Positions 5,338 to 62,856 of a DNA stretch of 64,000 nucleotides are shown here, piece after piece. The stretch's first letter is position 1, and each line of letters begins with the position of its first letter. Origin of the DNA: Flavobacteriales bacterium (GTDB lineage: Bacteria; Bacteroidota; Bacteroidia; Flavobacteriales_C; GCA-002722245); the NCBI GenBank assembly GCA_002717515.1, contig PBEC01000018.1, positions 19,818 through 83,817 of the forward strand, read 5' to 3'. The position numbers and the translations under genes were made by a program. Under the pieces are notes generated by a model. The model did not search any database. It had not been told where the DNA came from and saw only the letters and a program-made list of their open reading frames with translations.

Positions 5338-5346
5338 TAAAATATA

Positions 5347-5378
5347 AAAAAGGGCTGTCGAACGACAGCCCTTTTTTT
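5347..5378. terminator. Intrinsic terminator (bidirectional form) after the USP gene
   Basis: A6-GGGCTGTCG-AA-CGACAGCCC-T run. Confidence 0.9.
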
Positions 5379-16326: not shown

Positions 16327-16357
16327 AAAGCCACCTCAAAAAAGAGGTGGCTTTTTT
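16327..16357 (+). terminator. Intrinsic terminator after the dksA-like gene
   Basis: GCCACCTC-A6-GAGGTGGC-T6. Confidence 0.9.
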
Positions 16358-24128: not shown

Positions 24129-24160
24129 AAAAAAAGCCTCGCATTTTGCGAGGCTTTTTT
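24129..24160. terminator. Intrinsic terminator after the T9SS cargo gene
   Basis: A7-GCCTCGCA-TTT-TGCGAGGC-T6. Confidence 0.9.
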
Positions 24161-37268: not shown

Positions 37269-37417
37269 TTTTGTATATAATTTAGAGTAAAAAACGAAAT
37301 GAGTTTCGTCTTCAGCGTGCGAATATAAAGTATCCGTGAATTACTGTCAATTTTTTAATGTCAATAAATTGAAAAATAAACGTAATCTGGTTAAAAAACA
37401 CATTTAATTGGAAAAAT

Positions 37418-37445
37418 AAAAAGGTCAGGATATCCTGACCTTTTT
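37418..37445. terminator. Intrinsic terminator after the DAHP synthase/chorismate mutase gene
   Basis: A5-GGTCAGGA-TA-TCCTGACC-T5. Confidence 0.88.
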
Positions 37446-37466
37446 AATAAGTTAATTTTTTACCAA

Positions 37467-40192: not shown

Positions 40193-40200
40193 TAACTTTG
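40193..40200 (+). promoter_or_regulatory. -7 promoter element for the SLC13 permease gene
   Basis: TAACTTTG 10 nt upstream of ATG 40211. Confidence 0.65.
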
Positions 40201-40210
40201 TCGGTGATTT

Positions 40211-42004
40211 ATGTTTCAATTGAGTGAGTACATCAGCGAAGAAGGAGTCCAGGTTTATGTGATTGGAGTTATTCTTTTAACGATTATATTTCTTTACAAA
40301 GAGATATACAATACTGCTATCACTTTTCTCGGTGCAGTAGGACTTTTATTGCTTCCAGGTGTTGTGACGTCTAATGATGTTCTGTCTTCATTTGCTAATG
40401 AGCAGGTGGCAATCATTGTAATGCTATTAGTAATTGGACAGTTTTTAAAAAGGAGTCCTGTAATTGAGAATGTTTTCCAGCGTTTATTTTTGAAAACTAA
40501 GGGGTATTTAAAGTTTACATTTAAGATGACTGCTTGTGTTTCATTGTTTTCTGGATTTATGAACAATACCCCATTGGTTGCTTTATTGTTGCCATACGTG
40601 GTTGATTGGGGTAAAAAGAATAAGATTTCTCCGTCCAAACTATTAATTCCACTTTCTTTTGCTGCTATTATGGGGGGCGGATTAACTCTAATAGGAACAT
40701 CTACCAATTTAATTGCCGATAGCATCATAGTAGGGAAAATGGGTCCTTCAGCGGGATTAAGTATGTTTTCATTTTTTGTTATAGGAGCACCCCTTGTTGT
40801 AATTGGAATTGTTTATATACTTTTTTTTGGTAAAAGAATTCTTCCTAAGAATACAGGGATGATTTCCAATTTCCATAAAAACAAAAGAGAGTATTTGGTT
40901 GATTTATTGGTTACTGAGAAATCTCCATTGGTTGGAAAAACAATTGGTGAGTCTAACTTGAGAAGTTTAAAAGGATTATATTTGGTAGAGATTGTTCGAC
41001 CCGATAAAGTCAGAACTGCTCCAGGTCCGAAAGAAATTATGAGAGCAGGAGATTACATAATATTTGCTGGAGAAACTGATAATATTGCTGATATTGTTAA
41101 TTTGGATTTAGGCTTAGAGATGCCGAATGATTTAGAGAAGCTACAGCGAAAAAAAGAGGTTGTCGAAGTAATTGTTCCTTATAACTCTTCGTTGTCAAAA
41201 AAGAAGATTAAAGATACAGATTTTAGAGCGCGATTTGATGCTGCTATTATTGCTGTAAGACGAGATGGTGAAAAATTATATGGTAAAATAGGCGAAATGA
41301 CTTTGCAAAAGGGAGACATGATGTTATGTGTTGCTGGACATGATTTTTACAAGAGAATTGATCAAGCAAAAGAAGTGACATTGATATCAAATGTTCGTCA
41401 GTTACAAGATATTGATGGAAAAAAATCCACGTCATTAATAATTTCTACTGTTATTTCTATTTTACTACCCGCTTTAGGTTGGATAAGTTTGTTTCAGTCA
41501 CTTTTGCTTTTATTTGTTTTTTTATTGTTAACAAGGGTTGTTTTATTTGGAGAAGTAAAAAGAGCAATAAATATTAATTTAATAGCCATAATGGGCGGAG
41601 CTCTCTCTATTGGAGTAGCTATGGATAAAAGCGGGGCTGCTCAACTTATCGCCACAGAGGGATTAATTATTCTGGAGCCTTTAGGAACTATGGGGATTCT
41701 ATCTGGGGTATATTTAATAACTACTCTTTTGGCTGCATATATGACAAATATTGCAGCTGTTTCAATTATACTTCCAATTGCTTTAAGTTTTGCGGAGCTA
41801 AATGGTTACGATTATGAACCTTTCCTTTTTTGTGTTGCTTTTGCGGGTTCTAAAACTTTTTTAACCCCAATTGGGTATCAAACCAATTTAATGGTGTATG
41901 GTCCGGGTGGATATAAGTTTAAAGACTACTTTAAATTTGGATTTCCTTTGACCGTCTTGTTTATGGTGTCGACACTTATCATATTAAAGCTGATTTATTT
42001 CTAA
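40211..42004 (+). CDS. SLC13/CitMHS-type permease with tandem TrkA-C domains
   Basis: SGFMNNTP, LTLIGTSTNL, two TrkA-C domains and FLTPIGYQTNLMVYGPGGY.F.DY. Confidence 0.92.
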   Translation: MFQLSEYISEEGVQVYVIGVILLTIIFLYKEIYNTAITFLGAVGLLLLPGVVTSNDVLSSFANEQVAIIVMLLVIGQFLKRSPVIENVFQRLFLKTKGYLKFTFKMTACVSLFSGFMNNTPLVALLLPYVVDWGKKNKISPSKLLIPLSFAAIMGGGLTLIGTSTNLIADSIIVGKMGPSAGLSMFSFFVIGAPLVVIGIVYILFFGKRILPKNTGMISNFHKNKREYLVDLLVTEKSPLVGKTIGESNLRSLKGLYLVEIVRPDKVRTAPGPKEIMRAGDYIIFAGETDNIADIVNLDLGLEMPNDLEKLQRKKEVVEVIVPYNSSLSKKKIKDTDFRARFDAAIIAVRRDGEKLYGKIGEMTLQKGDMMLCVAGHDFYKRIDQAKEVTLISNVRQLQDIDGKKSTSLIISTVISILLPALGWISLFQSLLLLFVFLLLTRVVLFGEVKRAININLIAIMGGALSIGVAMDKSGAAQLIATEGLIILEPLGTMGILSGVYLITTLLAAYMTNIAAVSIILPIALSFAELNGYDYEPFLFCVAFAGSKTFLTPIGYQTNLMVYGPGGYKFKDYFKFGFPLTVLFMVSTLIILKLIYF

Positions 42005-43980: not shown

Positions 43981-44038
43981 GCTTCTAAATTAAGTAATTA
44001 TTCAACGATTCGAATAGAACATTCGCCATTCTCCTATT

Positions 44039-44779
44039 TTAACGCATTCCTTCAAATCGAGTTGATCTATTTATTTTTTTCTTTTTTTTAGGTATTTTTT
44101 TCTTTTTTGGTTTAGAATTATAATTATCGTGCCTCCTAAACGGATTCCATATATTTCGGGATTTCTTTTTGTTTCCGGAATAGTCCTTTTTTTTCGAAGA
44201 ATATGAGTCTTTAAATGTGGAGTTTGATTTTCTCGAATTTGAAGAGCTGTAGGAGTCTTTAAATCTCAGGTTTTGTCTTTTTGAATCCCTGGAGCTGTAG
44301 GAGTCATTGAATCCAAACTTACTTTTTTTTCTTTTTCTTTTACTTCCGTATGAGTCTCGAAAGCCATGTTGTCTTTTTCTTCCACTTTCTCCTCCATACG
44401 AATCTTTGAATCCATGTTGTCTTTTTCTCCCACTTTCTCCTCCATAGGAATCTTTGAATCCATGTTGTCTTTTTCTCCCACCACTACTTCCGCTGTATGA
44501 ATCTCTAAATCTAAATTGATTTCTTCTCCCACCCGATTTTCCGCTGTATGAGTCTCTAAATCCACGTTGGTTTTTTCTTCCGGCAGTGCGTCCGCTATAT
44601 GAATCTCTATATCCTATTTGATTTCTTCTTCCCGGACTTCCTCCGCTGTATGAATCGTTTAATCTCACTTTATATTTTCTACCTCCTGTTTTTCCGCTGT
44701 AGCTATCATGGAACTTGGGTGAGCATCCAAGAAAAAATATAGAATGAACAAAAATAAATATCAAAATTAATTTCTGCAT
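44039..44779 (-). CDS. Basic low-complexity lipoprotein with 11 FxDSY[SG][SG] repeats
   Basis: Signal peptide II ending FLG-C19; 16-17-aa repeats; Lys-rich tail. Confidence 0.8.
   Translation of the reverse strand: MQKLILIFIFVHSIFFLGCSPKFHDSYSGKTGGRKYKVRLNDSYSGGSPGRRNQIGYRDSYSGRTAGRKNQRGFRDSYSGKSGGRRNQFRFRDSYSGSSGGRKRQHGFKDSYGGESGRKRQHGFKDSYGGESGRKRQHGFRDSYGSKRKRKKSKFGFNDSYSSRDSKRQNLRFKDSYSSSNSRKSNSTFKDSYSSKKKDYSGNKKKSRNIWNPFRRHDNYNSKPKKKKIPKKKKKINRSTRFEGMR
44195..44713 (-). repeat. Intragenic tandem repeat (48/51-bp units)
   Basis: CCATGTTGTCTTTTTC recurs at 44364, 44412 and 44460 (48-bp period); flanking units are degenerate. Confidence 0.9.
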
Positions 44780-44833
44780 GTTGGTGAAGTAAATATCTAA
44801 TTTACGATTTCCTTTTAATTTGGTTTTTCTTTG

Positions 44834-44841
44834 TATCTTTG
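44834..44841 (+). promoter_or_regulatory. -7 promoter element upstream of the thr leader peptide
   Basis: TATCTTTG 8 nt upstream of ATG 44850. Confidence 0.7.
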
Positions 44842-44849
44842 TAATTCAA

Positions 44850-44936
44850 ATGAAAAAGGGCAGTATAACATCAACTCAAAAATCAACGATAATTACAATT
44901 ATCGCTACTGCTATTATCACCCCTTTTGGGGCGTAA
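44850..44936 (+). CDS. thrL: Putative thr operon leader peptide, MKKGSITSTQKSTIITIIATAIITPFGA
   Basis: 28 codons, 6 Thr and 7 Ile, ending 117 nt before thrA; missed by the ORF track. Confidence 0.8.
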   Translation: MKKGSITSTQKSTIITIIATAIITPFGA

Positions 44937-45010
44937 ATTTCATATATATAATATCACTCAAATTATTTCTGGTTAAATCGTTATTTAGTCACGACATAAT
45001 TCAATATTTT

Positions 45011-45025
45011 TGCGCCTTCGGCGCA
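45011..45025 (+). other. GC-rich hairpin in the thrA leader
   Basis: TGCGCC-TTC-GGCGCA; its left arm is complementary to the 3' end of the leader ORF (GGGGCGTAAA). Confidence 0.6.
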
Positions 45026-45053
45026 CAGTTCGAAACATTATAAATAAAAAGAA

Positions 45054-47486
45054 ATGAAAGTTTTAAAATTTGGAGGAACATCTGTTGGCACAGCAAATTC
45101 TATCAAAAGAGTTCAAGAAATTATTGCTCATGAAGCAAAAGAAGATAGAGTCATAGTGGTTGTTTCGGCAATGACGCAAGTCACCAATAAACTTTTAGCT
45201 GCCAGTGAATTGGCTGCCAATGGAGACGAATCTTATAAGGAAATTACTAAAGAAATTGAAAATAAGCATTTTGATGCAATTCGTGAATTGGTAGCAATTG
45301 ATCAACAAAGTGGAGTTATAGCGAATATTAAGGTTTTGTTGAATCAGTTGGAGGATATTTTAAATGGTGTCTTTTTAGTTCGTGAATTGTCGCCAAAAAC
45401 CTCGGATTATGTGGTTAGTTTTGGAGAGTCTCTTTCTTCAATTATACTTAGTAAATCTATAGGAGCTGAATTAGTGGACTCAAAATCTTTGATTCGAACA
45501 AATACTCAGCATGGAGGTGCAGCGGTACTTCACGAAACTACCTATGAAAATATAAAAGACTTTTTTCAAAGTAATGATGCAAACGTTTTTGTTGCACCTG
45601 GTTTTGTTGCTTCGACTGAGGAAGGAATTACCTCTACCCTGGGAAGAGGAGGTTCCGATTTTTCTGCAGCACTTTACGCAGCCGGTTCGGATGCTGCTGA
45701 ACTACAGATATGGACGGATGTTAGTGGAATGTATACTGCTGACCCAAGAAAGGTTAAATCTGCATTTCCTGTTAAGTATGCTTCGTATAAAGAAGCAATG
45801 GAACTCTCTCATTTTGGGGCGAAAGTTATTTATCCACCAACCATATTGCCTGTATACAAAAAAGGGATTCCTTTAAAAATAAAAAATACTTTTGCTCCCG
45901 AAGATCAGGGGACTTTAATTACGGCTAGTGCTGATGAAGGAATGCCAATTAAAGGAATTAGTTCGATTGATAAAATTGCTTTAGCCAGTTTAAGTGGTTC
46001 AGGTATGATTGGAATTCCTGGAATATCAGCTCGATTATTTGGGGCTCTTTCAAGAGCAAAAGTTAATGTAATACTAATTACTCAAGCATCATCTGAGCAT
46101 TCCATCTCCTTTGCGATTAGTCCTGAAGATATTAATCTTGCTGTTGAGGCAGTAAAGGAGGAGTTTGTTTTTGAGATTCAAACGGGTAAAATAAACAGTC
46201 CAAGAGTAGAAACGGGATTATCGGTTATAGCATTAGTTGGGGAAAAGATGAGTGGACAGGTTAATGTTAGTGGAAAAATGTTTAATACGCTTGGAAGCAA
46301 TGGAGTAAATATGAGGGCCATTGCTCAAGGATCATCAGAAAGAAATATTTCAGCAGTGATAGAAGAAAAAGATGTAAAAAAAGCACTAAATGTGCTTCAC
46401 GAAAATCATTTCGAAGGATCGAATAAAGTTTTGAATTTATTTGTAGTTGGTGTGGGGAATGTAGGTGGTACTTTGGTTGATCAAATTAAACAACAACAAA
46501 AAGTATTGCAGAAAAATTCAAACATTGTAGTTCGTGTCACTGGATTAGCGAATTCGAAAAAAATGTTGTTGAATTCAGAGGGAATTGATCTTAACGGATG
46601 GCAAGATCAAGTAGAGTCTTCATCAGTGATTTTTCATAAAGACGAGTTAATTGAGCAAATAGCTGAATTAAATTTGAGAAATTCTGTTTTTGTTGATTGT
46701 ACCGCAAATTATGAAATTGCATCGGTATATAAAAAGGCGTTGGAAAATAATATTAATGTTGTCACAGCGAATAAAATTGCATGTTCTTCTGATTACGAAT
46801 TGTATCAAGAACTTAAAGCAATATGCTTAAAAAATAACGTTAAGTTTTTATACGAGACTAATGTTGGCGCAGGTCTTCCTGTAATTGGTACCATTAATGA
46901 CTTGGTTCACTCTGGAGATAGAATTCAAAAGATTGAAGCTACGGTATCGGGGTCTTTAAATTTTATTTTTAATACATACGATGGAAACAATACTTTTCAT
47001 GATGTTGTATCGCAAGCAAAAAGTGAAGGTTATACAGAACCAGATCCACGAATAGATTTGTCGGGAGTAGATGTTAAACGAAAAATATTAATTCTGATAC
47101 GTGAGGCTGGAATTAAAATGGAATTTGATGATATAGAAGTTAAAGATATTCTTCCTAAGGCTTGTTTTGAGGTAGATAGCGTAGAAGACTTCTTTAATTT
47201 GTTAAAGAATGATGAACCAACTTTCCAAGAAATGGTTGGAAATGCGCAGTCTGAAGGTAGAAAATTAAGGGTTATTGCCAAGTACGAGGATGGAAAGGCA
47301 ACTGTTGAACTTCAAGCTGTTGATTCAACTCATCCATTTTACAACTTGCAGGGAACAGATAATACAGTAGCTCTTTATACGGATAGGTATGTTTCTCAAC
47401 CTATGGTAATTCAAGGAGCGGGAGCAGGAGCAGGAGTTACAGCAGCAGGAGTTTTTGCGGACATTGTAAGAATTGCTAATTATTAA
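45054..47486 (+). CDS. thrA: Bifunctional aspartokinase / homoserine dehydrogenase I
   Basis: KFGGTSV, TLGRGGSD, WTDV, two ACT domains, G.G.VG, ETNVGAGLP and GYTEPDPR.DLSG. Confidence 0.97.
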   Translation: MKVLKFGGTSVGTANSIKRVQEIIAHEAKEDRVIVVVSAMTQVTNKLLAASELAANGDESYKEITKEIENKHFDAIRELVAIDQQSGVIANIKVLLNQLEDILNGVFLVRELSPKTSDYVVSFGESLSSIILSKSIGAELVDSKSLIRTNTQHGGAAVLHETTYENIKDFFQSNDANVFVAPGFVASTEEGITSTLGRGGSDFSAALYAAGSDAAELQIWTDVSGMYTADPRKVKSAFPVKYASYKEAMELSHFGAKVIYPPTILPVYKKGIPLKIKNTFAPEDQGTLITASADEGMPIKGISSIDKIALASLSGSGMIGIPGISARLFGALSRAKVNVILITQASSEHSISFAISPEDINLAVEAVKEEFVFEIQTGKINSPRVETGLSVIALVGEKMSGQVNVSGKMFNTLGSNGVNMRAIAQGSSERNISAVIEEKDVKKALNVLHENHFEGSNKVLNLFVVGVGNVGGTLVDQIKQQQKVLQKNSNIVVRVTGLANSKKMLLNSEGIDLNGWQDQVESSSVIFHKDELIEQIAELNLRNSVFVDCTANYEIASVYKKALENNINVVTANKIACSSDYELYQELKAICLKNNVKFLYETNVGAGLPVIGTINDLVHSGDRIQKIEATVSGSLNFIFNTYDGNNTFHDVVSQAKSEGYTEPDPRIDLSGVDVKRKILILIREAGIKMEFDDIEVKDILPKACFEVDSVEDFFNLLKNDEPTFQEMVGNAQSEGRKLRVIAKYEDGKATVELQAVDSTHPFYNLQGTDNTVALYTDRYVSQPMVIQGAGAGAGVTAAGVFADIVRIANY

Positions 47487-47489
47487 AAA

Positions 47490-48416
47490 ATGAATCAGGT
47501 AAAAGTATTTGCCCCAGCAACCGTTGCTAATGTAGCGTGTGGTTTTGATGTTTTAGGTTTAGCGTTAGATTATCCAGGTGATGAGGTTTTGGTTACAAAA
47601 ACTGATCAAGAAGATATCGTAATCACTGCGTGCCATAATGCTGAAAATTTGCCTTTAGCTGCAGATAAGAATGTTGCCGGAGTAGCGGTAAGAGCTCTTT
47701 TAGATAAACTGGGGTCTAACCAAGGCTTTGAAATTGAATTGACTAAGGGCGTAAAGCCAGGGAGTGGAATAGGCAGTTCTGCTGCTAGTTCTGCCGCTGC
47801 TGTCGTAGCTGTAAATGAACTGTTGGGAAACCCTTTTACAAAAAAAGAGTTAGTTGAGTTTGCGATGGAAGGAGAGCGATGTGCAACAGGTGTTGCGCAT
47901 GCAGATAATGTAGCACCATCGATATGTGGTGGGTTTACTTTGGTGAGATCCTACGAACCGTTAGATATTATTAAAATAGATTCTCCAAAAGAGCTTTGGA
48001 CAACCGTTATTCATCCCCAATTAGAAGTTAAAACAAGAGATGCTCGTCGAGTTCTAAAGGGTGGTATAGATCTTTCTAAAGCAATTACTCAATGGGGTAA
48101 TGTTGGAGGGTTAGTTGCTGGATTATACTCTGAAGATTATGATTTAATAGGAAGGTCATTAGTAGATGTTGTTATTGAGCCAATTCGCTCAATACTAATA
48201 CCGGGTTATGAAAAGGTTAAAAAAGCAACCTTGGAAGCTGGAGCTTTAGGGTGTTCGATTTCAGGCTCAGGCCCCTCTATTTTTGGTTTAACCAAAGGAG
48301 AAGAAGCAGCAAATAAAGTTAAGGAGGCGATGGCTGATGTCTACACTCAATATGGAGTTGATTTTGAAATTCATGTTAGTCAAGTGAACTCAGAAGGAGC
48401 AAAAATCATAGGATAA
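47490..48416 (+). CDS. thrB: Homoserine kinase
   Basis: APATVANV..GFD, PGSGIGSSAAS GHMP motif, HADNVAP and ISGSGPS. Confidence 0.97.
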   Translation: MNQVKVFAPATVANVACGFDVLGLALDYPGDEVLVTKTDQEDIVITACHNAENLPLAADKNVAGVAVRALLDKLGSNQGFEIELTKGVKPGSGIGSSAASSAAAVVAVNELLGNPFTKKELVEFAMEGERCATGVAHADNVAPSICGGFTLVRSYEPLDIIKIDSPKELWTTVIHPQLEVKTRDARRVLKGGIDLSKAITQWGNVGGLVAGLYSEDYDLIGRSLVDVVIEPIRSILIPGYEKVKKATLEAGALGCSISGSGPSIFGLTKGEEAANKVKEAMADVYTQYGVDFEIHVSQVNSEGAKIIG

Positions 48417-49708
48417 TGAAATATTATAGCACAAGAAAAAACTCTGAAGAGGTATCGTTTAAAGATGCTGTAATAAGAGGACTAGCTCCGGATGGAGGAT
48501 TATATTTCCCTGAGAGAATAGATAAGTTACCAGAGGGTTTAATTGGATCTGGAGCATCCATTGAAGAATTAGGGTATGAAGTTGCTAAGCGTTTTGTTGA
48601 TGGTGAAATTCCAGACGGCGATTTGCAACGCATAGTCGAAGAAACGGTTAATTTCCCTTTACCTATTGTTGAGGTCGAAAAAGATGTATACTCCTTGGAG
48701 TTGTGGCATGGACCAACTTGTGCATTTAAAGATGTTGGTGGTCGTTTTCTAGGAAGATGTTTATCGCATTTTGTTAAAGAGAGCGGTGATAAAGTTACGA
48801 TATTGGTTGCTACTTCAGGTGATACAGGTTCGGCTGTTGCTTCTGGTTTTTTAGGTGTAGAAGGGATTGATGTGGTAATTCTTTATCCTAAGGGGTTGGT
48901 GTCCAAAATTCAAGAGCAACAACTCACCACTATGGGACAGAATATTTCCACCTTGGAAGTAGAGGGTTCTTTTGATGATTGTCAGGCAATGGTGAAGCAG
49001 GCTTTTAATGATCCTGAATTAAGAGCTGCTATGAAATTGTCCTCTGCTAATTCAATTAATGTAGCACGATTTTTGCCCCAGTCTTTTTATTATTTTGGTT
49101 CGTATGAGCAGTTGGAGGATAAGGACAAGCCTGTTGTTTATTCTTGTCCCTCGGGTAATTTTGGAAATTTGACTGCTGGTATGTTTGCTAAAGAAATGGG
49201 ACTTCCTATTGCTCGATTTATCGGAGCAACAAATGCTAATGATGTTGTTCCCGAATATTTAAGAACGGGCGTATATAAAGCTCGTCCATCTATTCCAACC
49301 ATTTCAAACGCAATGGACATAGGTGATCCTTCAAATTTTGTGAGAATATTGGAATTACACGGAGGTAATTGGGAAAAAGTAAAAGAATCAATGGTTGGAT
49401 ATGCGTTTAGTGACGAGGAAACAAAGGAAGGTATGCTAGATGTAATATCCAGAACGGGTTATCTAATGGAGCCTCATGGTGTTATAGGGTATATGGCAGT
49501 CAAGGAATATCAAAAAAATAATGATGTTCAGGGAGTTGTATTGGAAACCGCACATCCTGCCAAGTTTGGAGACGTAGTTGAGCCTGTAATTGGTCAAAAG
49601 GTTGAGGTGCCGGAAAGATTACAAGAATATATGAGAAGGCAAAAAGTAGCTACGCTAATCCAGCCAGATTTTGATGAGTTTAAACAGTATTTGTTGCAAA
49701 GAGGATAA
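48416..49708 (+). CDS. thrC: Threonine synthase
   Basis: GLAPDGGLY, ELWHGPT.AFKD PLP lysine, ATSGDTG and PSGNFGN. Confidence 0.97.
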   Translation: MKYYSTRKNSEEVSFKDAVIRGLAPDGGLYFPERIDKLPEGLIGSGASIEELGYEVAKRFVDGEIPDGDLQRIVEETVNFPLPIVEVEKDVYSLELWHGPTCAFKDVGGRFLGRCLSHFVKESGDKVTILVATSGDTGSAVASGFLGVEGIDVVILYPKGLVSKIQEQQLTTMGQNISTLEVEGSFDDCQAMVKQAFNDPELRAAMKLSSANSINVARFLPQSFYYFGSYEQLEDKDKPVVYSCPSGNFGNLTAGMFAKEMGLPIARFIGATNANDVVPEYLRTGVYKARPSIPTISNAMDIGDPSNFVRILELHGGNWEKVKESMVGYAFSDEETKEGMLDVISRTGYLMEPHGVIGYMAVKEYQKNNDVQGVVLETAHPAKFGDVVEPVIGQKVEVPERLQEYMRRQKVATLIQPDFDEFKQYLLQRG

Positions 49709-50741: not shown

Positions 50742-51506
50742 TTATAATAAATTGAACTTTTCTAAAAGTTCGTCTTTATAAGACCCTCCAATTGGAATTG
50801 ATTTCTCTAATCCTTCCAGTTGTAATCTTCCATTAACGTGTTCGATGGACAGGATTTTGTCAAGATTAACGATAAAAGAGCGGTGAACTCGAGCGAAAAA
50901 TTTATTTGGTAATTTCGACTCCACGTCTTTCATTGTACTGTGAATGGTATATTTTCCATGACGTGAATGAAAATTCACATAATCTTTCAAAGCTTCAACA
51001 TAAAATAAATCTTCAACACTGATTTTAATCAATTTACTTTTGTTTTTTACGAAAATGTAGTCTTTTCCGTTTTCGGATTCACTTACTAGTGTTGAATAAA
51101 CATCAAGCTCTTTTTTCATTTCAGCTGTTTTTTGATGTTTATACAGTGCCATTTCAATTGTAGTATGCAAATCAATTTCCTTGAAAGGTTTTAATATGTA
51201 GCCATATGGCTCTGTTATTTTCGCTTTCGATAGTGTGTTTTCATCGGCGTATGCTGTTAAAAAAATAACCGGTAAGTTGTAATTTTCTTTAACATATTCA
51301 GCGACCTCAATTCCATCCATACTTCCTTTAATCATGATATCCATAAGGAAAATTTCGGGCTTTAAACCGCTTTCCAAAAGTTCCTTAACTTTTTCTCCTG
51401 AGGAGGCCGTTCCAATAACTTCATACCCTAATTTCTTGAGACTTTGTTCAATATCTTTTGCAACAATATTTTCGTCCTCTAAAATGAATACTTTGGTATT
51501 TGCCAT
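50742..51506 (-). CDS. Response regulator, REC + LytTR
   Basis: ILEDE, LMDIM phospho-Asp, FLTAY and YILKP; EALKDYV and F.RVHRSFIVN LytTR motifs. Confidence 0.93.
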   Translation of the reverse strand: MANTKVFILEDENIVAKDIEQSLKKLGYEVIGTASSGEKVKELLESGLKPEIFLMDIMIKGSMDGIEVAEYVKENYNLPVIFLTAYADENTLSKAKITEPYGYILKPFKEIDLHTTIEMALYKHQKTAEMKKELDVYSTLVSESENGKDYIFVKNKSKLIKISVEDLFYVEALKDYVNFHSRHGKYTIHSTMKDVESKLPNKFFARVHRSFIVNLDKILSIEHVNGRLQLEGLEKSIPIGGSYKDELLEKFNLL

Positions 51507-51514
51507 ATCAATGA

Positions 51515-54433
51515 TTAATCTCTTTTAAAGTTAACAATGAATTTACTTCCTGAAGCATATTCATATTTTATTTCACCGTCAATTTGGTCAACTAGAGTCC
51601 AAACCAATTGAAGACCTAATGAATCGTTTGTTTTAATGTCTAAGTTTTTAGGTAAGCCTTGACCAGAATCGTGAACAATAAGACATTTGTTGTTGTTCTT
51701 ATTCTTGGTCAATGTAACTCTAATACTTCCTTCTTTCAATTTTGTAAAGGCATACTTAAAACAGTTGGAAACCAGTTCATTAACTATCAATCCGCATGGA
51801 ATAGCCGAATCTAAAGATAGGGATATATCCTCAATATCAAAATCCAATTTAACATTTCTGTTTGGTGTCATATAGGAGTATGAAATATTGTTGCATAAGT
51901 TCCTCAAATACTCTGCGAAATTTACAGCTGCAAAATCTTCTTTTTGGTATAAACTTTCGTGAATAAAAGCCATTGATTTTATCCTGTCCTGACACTCTCG
52001 AATAACACCCAATGTGTCTTCATCATTAATATAACTTGTCTGAAGATTTAATATAGAGCTAATTACTTGTAAATTATTTTTAACACGATGGTGTACTTCT
52101 TTAAGCAAAATTTCTTTTTGATGAATATTGTTTTTAAGTTCCTCTTCTGCTTTTTTAAGTTCAGTAATATCTCTTAAAACTCCCATTGTACCCATCGCTT
52201 TCTTTTCTGGTCCGGATAAAATAGAGGCAGATAGATAACCTATGAAGGTAGAATTATCAGCTCTTCGGCAAAGAACTTCTCCACTCCATTTTCCAATTTT
52301 TAAAACACTCTTGAGAATCTCTTCTCGATTGATGTCTTTGGCGAAAAGAGGATCAACAGGTTTGTCAACGATACTCAATGAGCTATAACCGAATCCATCC
52401 GTGGCGGCTTGATTAAATTCGGTTATCTTTCCATTTATATCGGTTGCAATTATCATATCGGTTGAGGAGTCAATTATATATTGATTTAATTCTTTTGCAG
52501 ATTTTAACTCTTCTTCAGCCGCAATTCTTTCATCAATTTCTTTTTGTAGGCTTATTGTAGTTTTTTCTGCAAATTCAGCTCTTAGTTTATCTTTTTCTGC
52601 TTCTTTTGCTATTTCTGCTGATTTTATCTCTTTTGTTATGTCTTCAATTGTCCCAACTCTACCAATTATATCGTTACTTGTGTCCCTTAGTAAGTTCACT
52701 TGAACTTTTACCCATCTTTCGTTTCCTTTTTTAGGTATTACTTTATATTCATATTGTTGATGGTTGTCTTTTTGTGTTAGGTTTATATGAGATTTTATTC
52801 TTTCTTGATCTTCAGGATGAATCTTGGATAGCCAATTTTCCATAAATCCGTCTACACTGGGGTAGTGAGCGATTTCTTTTAATTTATCGTTGATATAAAT
52901 TGCATTTCCCTGTTTATCGGTTAAGAATATACCAATTGGAGCATGTGAGGCGAGAGTTCTAAAGCGAGATTCACTTTCCTTTAGAATAGTTTCATACTCT
53001 AATCTCTCGCTTATGTTTCTTCCGCTTGCAATAATTACTTCTTTTCCAAAATAAGTTCCCGGATGAAGAATCATTTCAAGAGGAACATGAATGTCATTAC
53101 TTGTTTTACAGTGCCATTCAAATTTTTGAGGTTCCCCTGCCCAAGCTTTTCCAATTTTAACAAAATCATCCTCACTTATAATTTTTAATTCCCCCAATTG
53201 TTCAAAGGAACCTCCAACAATTGAATGTTTTGGAGCTTCATATGTGTTTAAAACGGTTTGGTTAACATCAATAACCTTACCTTGACTATCGACAATAAAA
53301 ATTAGATCCGAGCTTGAATTAAAAATTTCAAAATAACTTTTTATGGATTGATTTTTTTGCTCTTCAGCAATTTTTCTTTGAGTAATGTCTCTTACAATAA
53401 CCTGAATGTAGGAGTCCGATTCTACGGAAAAACTATTTATGCTCACTTCACAATCAAATTGTTCTCCAGTTATTTTTGAATGACGCCAGTAAAAAAACTG
53501 TGATTTACCTGCCAAGGCATTTTGCATATGATAATGGTAGGTTAAAATGGAGTCTTCACCACTGGGTTGCTTCTCAGGCATTAATTCGTAAAGTTTTTTA
53601 CCTGCTATCTCTAAAAATCCGGGAGCATTAAACATTGATAATGTTTTCTCATTACAGTCAACCATTTCGATGTCGCTGAAAATCATAATGGCATCGTTGG
53701 CTTCACTGAAGAGTAGCCTGTGTTTGAGTTCACTTTGCCGGAGCAGTTGATCTGCTTCGATATCTTTTGAAATGTCTCGAATTACACCAAAATTGGCAAA
53801 ATGATCATTTTTTTGAGAGATTTGTGGGTATATTGAAAGTTCAACCCAGGTGTTGAATTTTTTTTGTTGGTTTTGAATTCTAAATTGACATTTTTCCGGC
53901 TTTTTGTTTTTATTTACCTTTCTTATGATTTTGTTCACGTGAGCTCTGTCTGTTTTAAGTGCAAACTCGAAAGGCAATTTGCTTTGAAGAATCATATCCT
54001 CAGCTGATAATCCAGTTATTTTTTCGATTCCTTTACTTATAAAACCAATATTTTCTCGTTTATTCTTTACTATTTTTTCTGTGTAAACAATTTCGTCAAT
54101 ATTATTTAGGAAAAAGGATAAACGTCGTTCAACGGAGTCTTTATCTGATGTTTTTATTCTAAATAAAAAATAGTTTGATTGTGCAATTGAAAATCTTTTT
54201 TTTGTAGAAAGGATAAGGTGGTCGAGCTCATAAAGATTGTAACTAATTTCTTGATCAAGAATACAATTTAAGTCTATAAATGCGCTAAAATCTTTTTTTG
54301 TTGGGGCTTTTGGAATGTTTGGGAATATTTCCAATATAATGGAGTTGTGATATAAGATTGACGTTTGTTCATCAGTTATTATGATGCCTTCGCTTGACCC
54401 TTCAAAAAGTTCATTAAAATTGTGTTGTTTCAT
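51515..54433 (-). CDS. Multi-PAS sensor histidine kinase (HisKA_2 type)
   Basis: About six PAS/PAC-like repeats, EVHHRVKNNLQ H-box, ELVSNCFKYAF and DSGQG. Start 54433 preferred over 54517. Confidence 0.92.
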   Translation of the reverse strand: MKQHNFNELFEGSSEGIIITDEQTSILYHNSIILEIFPNIPKAPTKKDFSAFIDLNCILDQEISYNLYELDHLILSTKKRFSIAQSNYFLFRIKTSDKDSVERRLSFFLNNIDEIVYTEKIVKNKRENIGFISKGIEKITGLSAEDMILQSKLPFEFALKTDRAHVNKIIRKVNKNKKPEKCQFRIQNQQKKFNTWVELSIYPQISQKNDHFANFGVIRDISKDIEADQLLRQSELKHRLLFSEANDAIMIFSDIEMVDCNEKTLSMFNAPGFLEIAGKKLYELMPEKQPSGEDSILTYHYHMQNALAGKSQFFYWRHSKITGEQFDCEVSINSFSVESDSYIQVIVRDITQRKIAEEQKNQSIKSYFEIFNSSSDLIFIVDSQGKVIDVNQTVLNTYEAPKHSIVGGSFEQLGELKIISEDDFVKIGKAWAGEPQKFEWHCKTSNDIHVPLEMILHPGTYFGKEVIIASGRNISERLEYETILKESESRFRTLASHAPIGIFLTDKQGNAIYINDKLKEIAHYPSVDGFMENWLSKIHPEDQERIKSHINLTQKDNHQQYEYKVIPKKGNERWVKVQVNLLRDTSNDIIGRVGTIEDITKEIKSAEIAKEAEKDKLRAEFAEKTTISLQKEIDERIAAEEELKSAKELNQYIIDSSTDMIIATDINGKITEFNQAATDGFGYSSLSIVDKPVDPLFAKDINREEILKSVLKIGKWSGEVLCRRADNSTFIGYLSASILSGPEKKAMGTMGVLRDITELKKAEEELKNNIHQKEILLKEVHHRVKNNLQVISSILNLQTSYINDEDTLGVIRECQDRIKSMAFIHESLYQKEDFAAVNFAEYLRNLCNNISYSYMTPNRNVKLDFDIEDISLSLDSAIPCGLIVNELVSNCFKYAFTKLKEGSIRVTLTKNKNNNKCLIVHDSGQGLPKNLDIKTNDSLGLQLVWTLVDQIDGEIKYEYASGSKFIVNFKRD

Positions 54434-54591
54434 CAGAAGAATATTACTTGTTAAAGAAACAAATAAAAAAGATAATTTGAAGGATGTAAATTTGGCAAAG
54501 TAATTGTTTTTTAGCAACTTTTGAGATGAATTATATAACGAACACTAAAATTGCCGAAAAGGCGACAGGTTTTAGTCTTAAAATTATGCCA

Positions 54592-57517: not shown

Positions 57518-57545
57518 AAGGCACCTTAATGGGTGCCTTCTTTTG
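57518..57545 (+). terminator. Terminator after hemD, overlapping the stop of the convergent glycosyltransferase
   Basis: AAGGCACC-TTAATG-GGTGCCTT-CTTTT. Confidence 0.75.
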
Positions 57546-58637: not shown

Positions 58638-59771
58638 TTAGGGTTTTGCTCTCAGTAAATTACAAATGTTTAAACTCAGATTCATAAAGGCAATCTTTCC
58701 GTTCGCATTTCTCCAAATAGCCGTATGTGTACTTTCGAAAATATCGATTATTTCTAAGATGTTACCCCCATGAATGAATCGAGAAAAATTATCATTGAAC
58801 ACTTGTTCTTTTTCATTTAATCTATTCATTTCGGGACTAACATAATTGTGAAGAATACATTCTCGAAATATTCTCAATCCGTACTCTAAAAAATCTTTTT
58901 GTGCGATCCTTCCAAGTTTATCGATTTCATTAACCCACTTTTCAAGTTTAAGAAAGTCCGCAGTATAACAAAGTCGCATCCACTTTTGAAATAATCCTAC
59001 GAAGTTCTCTTCGTTTTCAGATTCATTTGATAAAGTAAGTGCTTTTGAGAAATTACCATCGGCTAAAACTGAAATTGATTGAGCTAAACTTTCAGGAAGT
59101 CCTTCTTTTTGGATTAAACCCTGTATAATATCTTCATCTTTCAAAGTCCCAGTCTTATTGATTTGAACACGTGAAATAATTGTAGGTAAGAGCTGTTCCG
59201 TATTATGACCAACAAGCAAAAATATTGAGTTGGGACTTGGCTCTTCAAGTACTTTTAATATTTTATTGGAACATTCAATATTCATGTTCTCAGGACACCA
59301 AATAATAATAATTTTAAATTTTGACTCATAGTTTTTTAATGAAACGGCTTTTACAATGTCATGACTATCTAGAATATTTATTTTCGATAGTTTTTCTTTT
59401 GCTCCAATATGAGTCATCCAATCATTAAGAGTGAAATATTCGTTTCGAGTTAGAAACTCAATCCACATCTTGATTAGTTTTTTACTAGATGGTTTTTCCT
59501 TTACCTCACTACAAACTGCCGAAGGATAAAAAAAATGTAAATCAGGATGTTGTTTATTTAAAAATTTACGGCAACTGGAACATTTTCCGCAGGAATCAGA
59601 AACACCTTGATTTTCGCAATTTATGTATTGAGCATAGGCAAGTGACAATTGAAAATTCCCACCTCCTTCCGTTCCTAAAAAAAGTTGTGCATGACTTATT
59701 CTTCCTTGTTTAACACTATTAATTAGTTGTTTTTTTATCTCTTTATGTCCAATTACATCCTTGAATAACAT
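58638..59771 (-). CDS. holB: DNA polymerase III subunit delta-prime
   Basis: F.DVIGH, HAQLF.G.EG.G, C.KC..C, HPDLHF.YP, NKILK.LEEP and LLPTIISR. Confidence 0.92.
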   Translation of the reverse strand: MLFKDVIGHKEIKKQLINSVKQGRISHAQLFLGTEGGGNFQLSLAYAQYINCENQGVSDSCGKCSSCRKFLNKQHPDLHFFYPSAVCSEVKEKPSSKKLIKMWIEFLTRNEYFTLNDWMTHIGAKEKLSKINILDSHDIVKAVSLKNYESKFKIIIIWCPENMNIECSNKILKVLEEPSPNSIFLLVGHNTEQLLPTIISRVQINKTGTLKDEDIIQGLIQKEGLPESLAQSISVLADGNFSKALTLSNESENEENFVGLFQKWMRLCYTADFLKLEKWVNEIDKLGRIAQKDFLEYGLRIFRECILHNYVSPEMNRLNEKEQVFNDNFSRFIHGGNILEIIDIFESTHTAIWRNANGKIAFMNLSLNICNLLRAKP

Positions 59772-59778
59772 CGAGTAT

Positions 59779-59786
59779 CAAAGATA
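59779..59786 (-). promoter_or_regulatory. -7 promoter element for holB
   Basis: TATCTTTG on the minus strand, 7 nt upstream of the ATG. Confidence 0.65.
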
Positions 59787-62478: not shown

Positions 62479-62856
62479 TTAGTTACCAAATTTCATTTCT
62501 TTTAAACCCTCTGGAAGGTTTTTCCAGCTGTAAAAAACGCCAATATCTTCTCCTTCTTTCCAAAGTGGTAAATCAGGATGGAGAGCAAATTCAAAAATTC
62601 GATCCGTATTTTCGATATCATAAATCTCTTCTTCTTTAATTAAAGCAGCTTCAATTACGACTAAAAATGATTCATCATCACCAATTAATTCAATAATTCG
62701 GCAGTTTTTCATGGTTACGGATTCTGTCTCGTTATCGTCCTTATCGTAAAGTGGTAAATTAAAATCGCCTGTTTTATCTTTAATAGTAACAATGTCAAAG
62801 GGCAATTCCTCCTGAAATTCCCATTCTGATGCATGAATATTAAAATTTACGGTCAT
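62479..62856 (-). CDS. Acidic hypothetical protein
   Basis: 125-aa ORF with its own TATATTTG element upstream; no family recognised. Confidence 0.7.
   Translation of the reverse strand: MTVNFNIHASEWEFQEELPFDIVTIKDKTGDFNLPLYDKDDNETESVTMKNCRIIELIGDDESFLVVIEAALIKEEEIYDIENTDRIFEFALHPDLPLWKEGEDIGVFYSWKNLPEGLKEMKFGN

Follow-up and report, generated by a model that had tools for sequence, protein, structure and literature searches.

A likely threonine/isoleucine leader-peptide element upstream of thrABC in a marine Flavobacteriales bacterium and other Bacteroidota

Introduction

How could a ribosome report the supply of an amino acid to RNA polymerase in bacteria that ignore Shine-Dalgarno sequences? 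Leader-peptide attenuation was worked out in Proteobacteria and requires that RNA polymerase and the first ribosome be closely timed. Bacteroidota, besides ignoring the Shine-Dalgarno sequence, have different promoters and a divergent Rho. The question is raised by the region upstream of the threonine operon thrA-thrB-thrC in a 64,000-nucleotide (nt) stretch of a Flavobacteriales bacterium (contig PBEC01000018.1), here called the window. An earlier note had placed there an unannotated Thr/Ile leader peptide and an attenuator-like switch; all its coordinates and sequences were correct, including TATCTTTG, GGGGCGTAAA, TTTGCGCCTT, TATTTTTG and the hairpin at 45011-45025. Most likely, this marine bacterium and many other Bacteroidota carry a thr leader-peptide element upstream of thrABC, a ribosome-sensed amino-acid gauge like the thr leader of E. 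coli.

A Thr/Ile-rich leader ORF upstream of thrABC

The leader open reading frame (ORF) and the operon that follows it are:

44850..44936, + strand: leader ORF (thr leader peptide), 28 codons plus stop, MKKGSITSTQKSTIITIIATAIITPFGA, recognized by Thr/Ile density and by conserved length and composition
44886..44921, + strand: regulatory codon run, codons 13-24 (T I I T I I A T A I I T), from the alignment of relatives
45054-47486, + strand: thrA, 810 amino acids (aa), NCBIfam NF006959, 1018 bits
47490-48416, + strand: thrB, NCBIfam NF002288
48416-49708, + strand: thrC, NCBIfam TIGR00260

The three genes of the regulated operon (45054..49708, + strand) were identified by NCBIfam equivalogs. The leader ORF lies on the same strand with no gene in between, 117 nt from its stop codon (at 44934) to the thrA ATG, and the gene upstream of it (44039-44779) is divergent. 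Translation of 44850-44936 agreed with the earlier count of 13 Thr or Ile codons among 28: MKKGSITSTQKSTIITIIATAIITPFGA contains six Thr and seven Ile. We compared it with all ATG-started ORFs of 15-60 aa in the six frames of the whole 64-kb window. Among these 407 small ORFs the leader ranked first in Thr+Ile density, and its best 12-residue stretch held 10 such residues versus 8 in the runner-up. The runner-up, a 28-codon ORF at window position 62833 (+ strand, MNIKIYGHTIFLTNITTTKIQNLIVDIL), is probably a chance occurrence.

For comparison, thrA loci were gathered from GTDB genomes and JGI metagenomes (numbered L). ThrA of the window was 86-93% identical to proteins from metagenome-assembled genomes (MAGs) of uncultured marine Flavobacteriales, which confirms the assignment to Bacteroidota. 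The close-relative set reached down to a ThrA identity of 84-86%, and its 24 distinct leaders plus L065 formed the 25-sequence alignment A2. In all 24 leaders the ATG followed the upstream promoter box (P1, see below) by 8-9 nt and the ORF was free of indels; 22 of the 24 kept an ORF of 25-28 codons with 39-50% Thr+Ile. Individual residues swapped freely among T, I, A and S. Composition was thus kept while residues changed, which is the signature of a leader peptide. The codons A-I-I-T-P of the terminal run were nearly invariant across the clade, with one variable synonymous site, and the other two frames across the ORF held a median of two stop codons.

The data are consistent with the leader ORF being unannotated, as the earlier note had it. 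The window peptide, its TTG-extended form and three orthologous peptides were all absent from a 15-billion-protein collection in an exact look-up, and four leader peptides gave no match against Pfam or NCBIfam at E <= 10. Rfam at gathering threshold returned nothing relevant for the whole window and 20 orthologous loci. At E <= 10, Thr_leader (RF00506) was not among the Rfam matches on 44700-45200, and the Bacteroid-trp covariance model (RF01692) matched neither the window nor the 20 orthologous loci. Judged from sequence comparison, the sensor part by itself, a leader peptide sensing Thr/Ile, is highly probable.

Distribution in Bacteroidota

The earlier note had suggested looking for Thr/Ile-rich upstream ORFs (uORFs) before thrA orthologues. 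At least 16 more loci have them, in Cyclobacteriaceae/Roseivirgaceae, Pedobacter, Flavobacterium, Chitinophagaceae and Balneolaceae. Together with the conservation among close relatives, this gives strong comparative support to a Thr/Ile leader upstream of thrABC. The peptides include:

Cyclobacteriaceae/Roseivirgaceae: MSIITTTGMTPLGF and MQGIIMSIITTTGITPWGL
Pedobacter: MNINSTITSIIITTTGYSGRQVS and MNFNSTIITIIINTTGINQRG
Flavobacterium sp.: ...TSTFTTTTTTTP, then stop
Chitinophagaceae genome: ...SIIITTITTR, then stop
Balneolaceae MAG: ...MTITITP, then stop

Three Pedobacter loci (L021, L025 and L055) had, in addition to the uORF, a stop-proximal CGGGGC or GGGAGG complementary to the 5' arm of a terminator. 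With the long GC hairpin and its U9, this makes up a textbook antiterminator and terminator. The Cyclobacteriaceae showed a 1:2 / 2:5 / 4:5 arrangement, with UGGGGUU pairing to a distal AACUCCA at -7 to -11 kcal/mol; the AACUCCA can alternatively enter a GGAGUU...AACUCC hairpin with a moderately U-rich tail. Among the loci gathered, the uORF was absent before thrA in many other lineages, among them Saprospiraceae, several Flavobacteriales (58-66% ThrA identity) and Acidobacteriota.

A further thrA leader without a Thr/Ile uORF was seen in a JGI metagenome contig (L072:735-800, ThrA 65% identical). It has a TAAATTTG box and, after it, a 5' untranslated region (UTR) with a terminator-like hairpin (CCUUA...UAAGG plus U5) for which there was no Rfam match. 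This leader might represent another type of attenuator or riboswitch.

A transcribed counterpart is very probably present in Bacteroides thetaiotaomicron. Differential RNA sequencing recorded there the small ORF sORF_00195 (3001616-3001672, minus strand), with its own transcription start site (TSS) at 3001707 and a coverage of 570 (PMC7366714). Its sequence, ATGAAGTACTATCCACATACAGTCACATCCATGTGTACCATGACCCTTTGGGGTTAA, encodes MKYYPHTVTSMCTMTLWG and ends in ACCCUUUGGGGU (PMC7366714 supplements). It precedes thrA (BT_2403) by 132 nt. Another 5' end, enriched by terminator exonuclease (TEX) in mid-log phase, was mapped 10 nt before thrA (PMC7366714); it follows a hairpin CAAUC(A)CCCU...AGGGGAUUG and then UAUUUAAAUA. 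In that study (Ryan et al. 2020, PMC7366714, Supplementary Data 3) sORF_00195 figures only as one of 409 anonymous predicted candidates and is not read as a thr leader; some sORFs are called, in general terms, 'reminiscent of leader peptides'. Like the window leader, it stands upstream of thrA, ends (in ...TMTLWG and a stop) at a mini-hairpin (ACCCUUUGGGGU) and has its own TSS followed by a second 5' end. Unlike the window leader, it is only modestly Thr-rich (4/18), has no Ile and has a 35-nt 5' UTR, and its last hairpin (CAAUCACCCU...AGGGGAUUG) carries a partly U-rich tail. The mapped TSS and the coverage indicate that the element is transcribed in at least one relative.

Two putative promoter boxes

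Two boxes of the TAnnTTTG type flank the leader:

44834..44841, + strand: P1, Bacteroidota-type -7 box TATCTTTG, conserved in close relatives
45005..45012, + strand: P2, second -7 box TATTTTTG, part of the block ATTCAATATTTTTG, which is invariant (TAATTCAATATTTTTGCGCC in most)

The motif occurred in the window at chance rate (99 found vs 99 expected), so the case for P1 and P2 rests on conservation. TAT-N-TTT of P1 was kept in 24/24 close-relative leaders, with the final G changed to A or C in L037, L041, L042/57 and L040. Block ATTCAATATTTTTG was invariant in all 25 aligned sequences. Relatives lacking the uORF also had a P2-type box 13-33 nt upstream of thrA: AATTCAATAAATTTGC / AATTGTTTATTTTCGC in L066-L070, and AAATTCAATAAATTTGCCGC, GAATTGTTTATTTTCGC and TATTTTCGCA in relatives with 58-66% ThrA identity and only a short intergenic region. 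Because the orthologous box is proximal to thrA in these uORF-less relatives, the P2 box is very likely the thrA promoter. The second TAnnTTTG that the earlier note had seen overlapping the hairpin is therefore real, invariant and very likely a genuine promoter.

The gap between -7 box and TSS is 4-5 nt in F. johnsoniae (PMC6847099), and the TSS tables of F. psychrophilum agree (PMC9723704). By analogy, P1 transcripts are predicted to start at about 44846-44847, leaving the uORF a 5' UTR of 3-4 nt and making it near-leaderless, and P2 transcripts at about 45017-45018, within the loop of the GC hairpin described below. A sigma-70 promoter and terminator scan was uninformative for Bacteroidota.

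TAnnTTTG boxes 7-10 nt before start codons were also seen at 40193-40211 (+) and 59771-59786 (-), preceding gene 40211-42004 (CitMHS/TrkA-C transporter) and gene 58638-59771, respectively. Near-leaderless mRNAs may be fairly common in this genome. L005 and L050 carry a 44-nt insertion, GTGACACAATTGTTTCATGGATCTTGAACATTTAAACGAAATACAC, between the GC hairpin/P2 and the thrA start codon, which indicates that the spacing to the start codon is not critical.

RNA hairpins of the leader

RNAalifold on A2 gave exactly three hairpins. With the segments between them, they are:

44920..44931, + strand: mini-hairpin CCCC-UUUU-GGGG ('1:2'), about -7.5 kcal/mol, from RNAalifold and pair counts
44928..44937, + strand: segment 2, GGGGCGUAAA (DNA GGGGCGTAAA), last two codons plus stop, complementary to 45009-45018
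44937..44967, + strand: spacer, G-depleted and A/U-rich, with a conserved UUUUCACAUAUAAU-like block, from composition across relatives
44961..45001, + strand: hairpin A, core UGGUUAAAU-CGUU-AUUUAGUCA at 44970-44991 with the A/U extension 44961-44969:44993-45001, from RNAalifold
45011..45025, + strand: GC hairpin UGCGCC-UUC-GGCGCA ('3:4'), -9.2 kcal/mol, followed by CAGUUCGAAAC (DNA CAGTTCGAAAC), from RNAalifold

The mini-hairpin, the best-conserved RNA element of the leader, had been overlooked in the earlier note. The Thr/Ile codon run ends on its 5' arm, and it would sequester the GGGG of segment 2. Its C:G pairs were present in 24-25 of the 25 sequences, and its energy ranged from -6.4 to -8.1 kcal/mol in the close-relative clade. 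A C-run/loop/G-run hairpin stood right after the Thr/Ile run in every non-Pedobacter lineage. It was seen in Cyclobacteriaceae, Flavobacterium, L023, L010, L011, L052 and sORF_00195 of B. thetaiotaomicron, with flanking pairs that vary by lineage (UACCCC..GGGGUA, AACCCC..GGGGUU, CAACCC..GGGUUG). The stop codon lies within or adjoining the mini-hairpin in all lineages, and in its loop in L035/L036, L010, L011 and L071. This position indicates that the RNA is conserved, and not the '..PFGA' tail of the peptide. A U-rich stretch usually follows, e.g., GGGGUUUAAUUUU, GGGGUUUUAAUUAUUUU or GGGGUUUUCGCUUUGUU; the flank in the window itself is CGUAAAUUUC. We propose that the mini-hairpin with its U-rich flank acts as a pause hairpin that synchronizes RNA polymerase with the first ribosome, and that it also sequesters GGGG.

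Across relatives the spacer, rich in A/U and not in C, had a median of 5 C vs 1 G per 35 nt, against an intergenic background with 13% C and 15% G. Flavobacterium sp. L071 carries, after its mini-hairpin, a block CAUUUUACAUAUAAU resembling that of the window spacer. A UUUU(C)ACAUAUAAU-like block thus stands behind the mini-hairpin both at 44938-44953 of the window and at L071:708-722, where ThrA is only 54% identical.

Hairpin A had 86% of its alignment cells paired. Its pair 161-176 covaries (CG 15, UA 7, UG 1), G.U variants occur as well, and in L032, L003, L039 and L037 the pairing is regained by a register shift. These shifts and variants favour an RNA structure over a protein operator. 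A transcription-factor operator was considered less likely for hairpin A, the half-sites not being kept.

The GC hairpin was paired in 93% of cells, with the loops UUC, UUA, UCC, UUU, UGC and UCU. The loop varies while the stem is kept, which points to selection on pairing; the stem changes were one-sided or wobble only, and the energy is weaker in some relatives (-1.5 kcal/mol in L040). Both the GC hairpin and the mini-hairpin co-occur with the Thr/Ile uORF. The GC hairpin is decayed in L065 and absent from the uORF-less relatives.

A possible alternative pairing

The earlier note had reported that the stop-codon region can pair with the left arm of the GC hairpin. This complementarity is real: segment 2 (GGGGCGTAAA, 44928-44937) and TTTGCGCCTT (45009-45018) form 10 pairs, four G-C/C-G, three A-U and three G.U. 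Across A2 this 2:3 pairing (alignment columns 116-125 with 197-206) was 82% paired. It is strong in the 'GGGGCG' subclade of the window, at -11 to -15.4 kcal/mol (window -13.2, vs -9.2 for its GC hairpin).

The leading edge of a ribosome is usually 12-15 nt. Stalling with codons ~21-24 in the A site would thus place the ribosome over CCCC and leave GGGG uncovered, and one at the stop codon would cover GGGGCG, i.e., segment 2. With CCCC masked by the ribosome and the 3' arm of the GC hairpin not yet made, the 2:3 pairing reached a modelled probability of 0.94-1.0 in the window subclade and 0.1-0.9 in the sister subclade. The specific RNA switch is plausible on these models and kinetically reasonable in the window genome; the comparative data do not prove it.

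Several other pairings were tried and set aside. Plain minimum-free-energy folding with ribosome masks did not reproduce the switch at equilibrium. It suggested a pairing of UUUUGGGG with the thrA start (AAGUUUUAAAA) or with CAGUUCGAAA, rejected as weak, unconserved G.U pairs. The long-range helices UUUCUG:CAG..AAA, AAUUC:GAAU and AUAUAAU:AUUAU were dropped by eye for insufficient conservation or complementarity. The co-variation of GCG/GUU in the stop region with AC/UU at 44994-95 reflects subclade phylogeny and not base pairing.

Proposed mechanism

Transcripts from P1 would start 3-4 nt before the leader AUG, allowing immediate ribosome loading and translation of the leader ORF. Past this run, the CCCC/GGGG mini-hairpin with its U-rich flank would form, serving as pause and as '1:2' element. 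When Thr and Ile are plentiful, the ribosome would reach the stop at 44934 and cover GGGGCG; after its release the mini-hairpin would re-form and the GC hairpin would fold. A shortage of charged tRNA-Ile or tRNA-Thr would stall the ribosome at the last A-I-I-T codons, with CCCC covered and GGGG(CG) free. The freed GGGG(CG) could then pair with the emerging (U)GCGCC(UU) 5' arm and prevent the GC hairpin. Our best guess is that the GC hairpin would stop or pause P1-derived polymerases with the help of a factor, for example NusA/NusG or Rho loaded on the G-poor spacer. In that case P1 would contribute to thrABC expression only under starvation, and P2 (45005-45012), overlapping the 5' arm of the hairpin, would give basal expression. 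The output would thus be a factor- or pause-dependent stop of P1 transcripts on top of a basal P2.

We give about an even chance to this mechanism as a whole, a ribosome-sensed Thr/Ile attenuator of thrABC in a two-promoter arrangement. A broader idea is tentative, and we think it possible rather than probable: that the locus represents a new design of attenuation for Shine-Dalgarno-less bacteria, with a near-leaderless ORF, a phylum-wide 4-bp CCCC/GGGG sensor hairpin and a U-tract-less hairpin placed on the -7 box and start of P2. Ribosome stalling would then choose between read-through and a factor- or pause-dependent stop of P1 polymerases at the downstream promoter itself, and attenuation would be coupled with promoter interference or occupancy instead of intrinsic termination.

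Comparison with known systems

The regulatory logic of the E. coli thr leader is the same as that proposed for the window. Enterobacterial thrL (Rfam RF00506, Pfam Leader_Thr) is likewise a short Thr/Ile ORF immediately before thrA-thrB-thrC, and there too the ribosome terminating at the stop codon covers a segment that could otherwise pair with the 5' arm of the final hairpin. The two are not homologous, as the window has no Rfam, Pfam or NCBIfam match even at E = 10. The window leader further differs from thrL in its Ile-dominated peptide (seven Ile, six Thr), the lack of a Shine-Dalgarno sequence, the predicted 5' UTR of ~3-4 nt, and a last hairpin that lacks a U tract and shares sequence with a second promoter box.

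For the output, E. coli tnaC-tnaAB and Salmonella mgtL-mgtA offer a model. There a leader ORF and Rho control read-through without an intrinsic terminator, and the position of the ribosome sets whether the factor stops RNA polymerase in an untranslated spacer. The hints in the window toward such an output are the G-depleted spacer and the missing U tract, and the analogy may apply.

Leader-peptide elements are already known or predicted in Bacteroidota, so that the kind itself is not new. The Bacteroid-trp leader (Rfam RF01692; Weinberg et al. 2010, PMC2864571) is one of them, and leader-peptide attenuators are predicted for the ilvE, hisG and aromatic operons of F. psychrophilum in SI D9 and Table S7 of PMC9723704. 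According to the same tables, the ilvE leader is followed by a canonical hairpin and U tract, and the hisG entry ends in a GC-rich hairpin (PMC9723704). Like the window ORF they are leader-peptide elements of this phylum and order, and they show that Bacteroidota without Shine-Dalgarno sequences do use ribosome-mediated attenuation; they belong to other operons and other amino acids. A thr leader is not listed in PMC2864571, in those tables of PMC9723704 or in Rfam 15. The supplements on F. johnsoniae contain nothing on thrA. Full-text literature searches turned up no account of a thr leader in Bacteroidota; an older comparative paper by Vitreschak et al. 2004 (FEMS Microbiol Lett) reportedly mentions candidate amino-acid attenuators in Bacteroidetes/Chlorobi and may have priority for a thr leader.

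Points against attenuation and rival explanations

Several results weigh against a classical attenuator. None of the 24 relatives has a U tract behind the GC hairpin, nor has the window, as the earlier note had seen, and the terminator scan mentioned above reported 0 sites in 44000-46000. Canonical A-run/hairpin/U-run terminators, often bidirectional and with a GC hairpin of 8-14 bp, occur elsewhere in the window (5346-5377, 16327-16354, 24130-24160, 37417-37446 and 57518-57539). With such terminators in the genome, the missing U tract indicates that the GC hairpin does not belong to the standard intrinsic terminators. Termination at it is unproven and mechanistically awkward, promoter P2 downstream of the sensor could bypass the sensor, and the loading of Rho on the spacer is a suggestion that draws only on the G depletion of a 35-nt stretch. 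The 2:3 pairing showed no compensatory change across the 25 sequences, and one pair is broken in 15 of them. In the 'GGGGUU' sister subclade the duplex is weak (-5 to -6.4 kcal/mol). At equilibrium with the 3' arm present, its probability reached 0.94 in L034 and 0.34 in the window but at most 0.08 in the others examined, the GC hairpin being favoured in most sequences. Finally, the leader has decayed in several lineages that keep the operon intact, so that the device is dispensable. L042/L057 keep the ORF without the Thr/Ile bias (MLKKINYNFLIYKINSAYLSSFITPFGA); in L065 (80% identity) the ORF now reads MEKKYYFNFNNYNCSGCFYHPF, the bias is lost and both GC-rich hairpins are broken; and L040 has lost its GC hairpin. 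All four (L042, L057, L065 and L040) retain hairpin A and the P2 box, L065 keeping hairpin A despite the decayed Thr/Ile ORF. The alternative pairing of the earlier note therefore stands as a real complementarity that is strong in the window subclade, but not as one supported in the sister subclade or by compensatory changes. Of its classical logic the geometry fits, termination at the GC hairpin is without support, and the logic as such is demonstrable only in the Pedobacter orthologues with their U9 terminator. Its hedge that the output may be non-canonical was appropriate.

One rival is a leader in decay, in which thrABC is driven essentially by P2, P1 and the leader are minor or constitutive, and the GC hairpin is the remnant of a former terminator without its U tract and function. 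The invariant P2 box, the proximal promoter-like box in uORF-less relatives, the absent U tract and the repeated independent decay of leader parts (L040, L042/57, L065) all agree with it, as does the streamlining known of marine Flavobacteriales MAGs. We regard it as unlikely, since the ORF, its bias, A-I-I-T-P, the mini-hairpin and the GC stem are kept in 22/24 leaders over a ThrA divergence to 84-86%, and since a variable loop on a kept GC stem indicates selection on pairing. Rather doubtful is an output after transcription, with alternative folds of the P1 mRNA altering thrA translation initiation or mRNA processing and stability. In Bacteroidota, which have no Shine-Dalgarno sequence, initiation depends on an unstructured A-rich leader. 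The missing terminator tail would suit such an output, stalled folds predict in several sequences that the freed UUUUGGGG pairs with the thrA start or CAGUUCGAAA, and in B. thetaiotaomicron only ~20 nt separate the last hairpin from the thrA AUG, and the 5' end mapped just behind that hairpin could be a processing site. However, the GC hairpin of the window ends 28 nt before the AUG and is kept in L005/L050 despite the wider gap made by their insertion, the predicted long-range pairs are weak, unconserved G.U/A-U helices, and P2 transcripts have the same translation start region.

The mini-hairpin raises a simpler scheme, in which it forms a terminator together with its U-rich flank and is blocked by a ribosome stalled on CCCC, hairpin A and the GC hairpin serving P2 or other roles. 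As the only element conserved phylum-wide, and one usually followed by a U-rich stretch, the mini-hairpin might fill this part. But its stem has only 4-6 bp at the energies given above, the window flank is CGUAAAUUUC, and the GC hairpin co-occurs with the Thr/Ile uORF. A non-stalled ribosome should also melt a hairpin inside the ORF, leaving starvation and plenty undistinguished without extra timing. We consider this scheme improbable. The least credible of the explanations is a non-regulatory one: the product of the ORF would be a small hydrophobic or membrane peptide with a function of its own, or else promoter and operator sites in the DNA would account for the conserved blocks, the Thr/Ile richness being incidental. 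The peptide does have a basic N-terminus and a 15-residue hydrophobic tail, and the inverted repeat of hairpin A covers the -33 region of P2. Yet composition and not sequence is conserved, the orthologues in other families (14-34 aa, always upstream of thrA) are not membrane-like (e.g., TFTTTTTTTP followed by stop), the peptide C-terminus is dispensable, since the stop codon of L035/36 lies in the loop, and hairpin A with its G.U variants and register shifts looks like paired RNA. The attenuator with two promoters thus remains the reading that we prefer, at the strength given above.

Genomic neighbourhood

44039-44779, - strand: divergent gene upstream of the leader, 246-aa lipoprotein-like product with a signal peptide ending ..FFLGCS
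50742-51506, - strand: LytTR-type response regulator, downstream of the thr operon
51515-54517, - strand: 1000-aa multi-PAS HisKA_2 histidine kinase, beside the former

Behind its signal peptide, the product of the divergent gene has ~14 tandem repeats, [FY][RK]DSYSG..GGR[KR]NQ, and a Lys-rich tail, and gave no match in Pfam or NCBIfam.

Significance

The thr leader is conserved over several Bacteroidota classes, is missing from Rfam, Pfam and NCBIfam, and has been passed over by gene calling. Its features provide a simple annotation signature for an overlooked regulatory gene upstream of thrA. Pedobacter has a canonical terminator, Cyclobacteriaceae and Bacteroides have weak U tails, and the clade of the window has an embedded promoter and no U tail at all; this natural series is a ready-made experiment on terminator requirements in Bacteroidota. 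The transcribed counterpart in the gut model B. thetaiotaomicron makes the element directly testable. How Bacteroidota couple polymerase and ribosome is largely unexplored, and the thr leader bears on that question.

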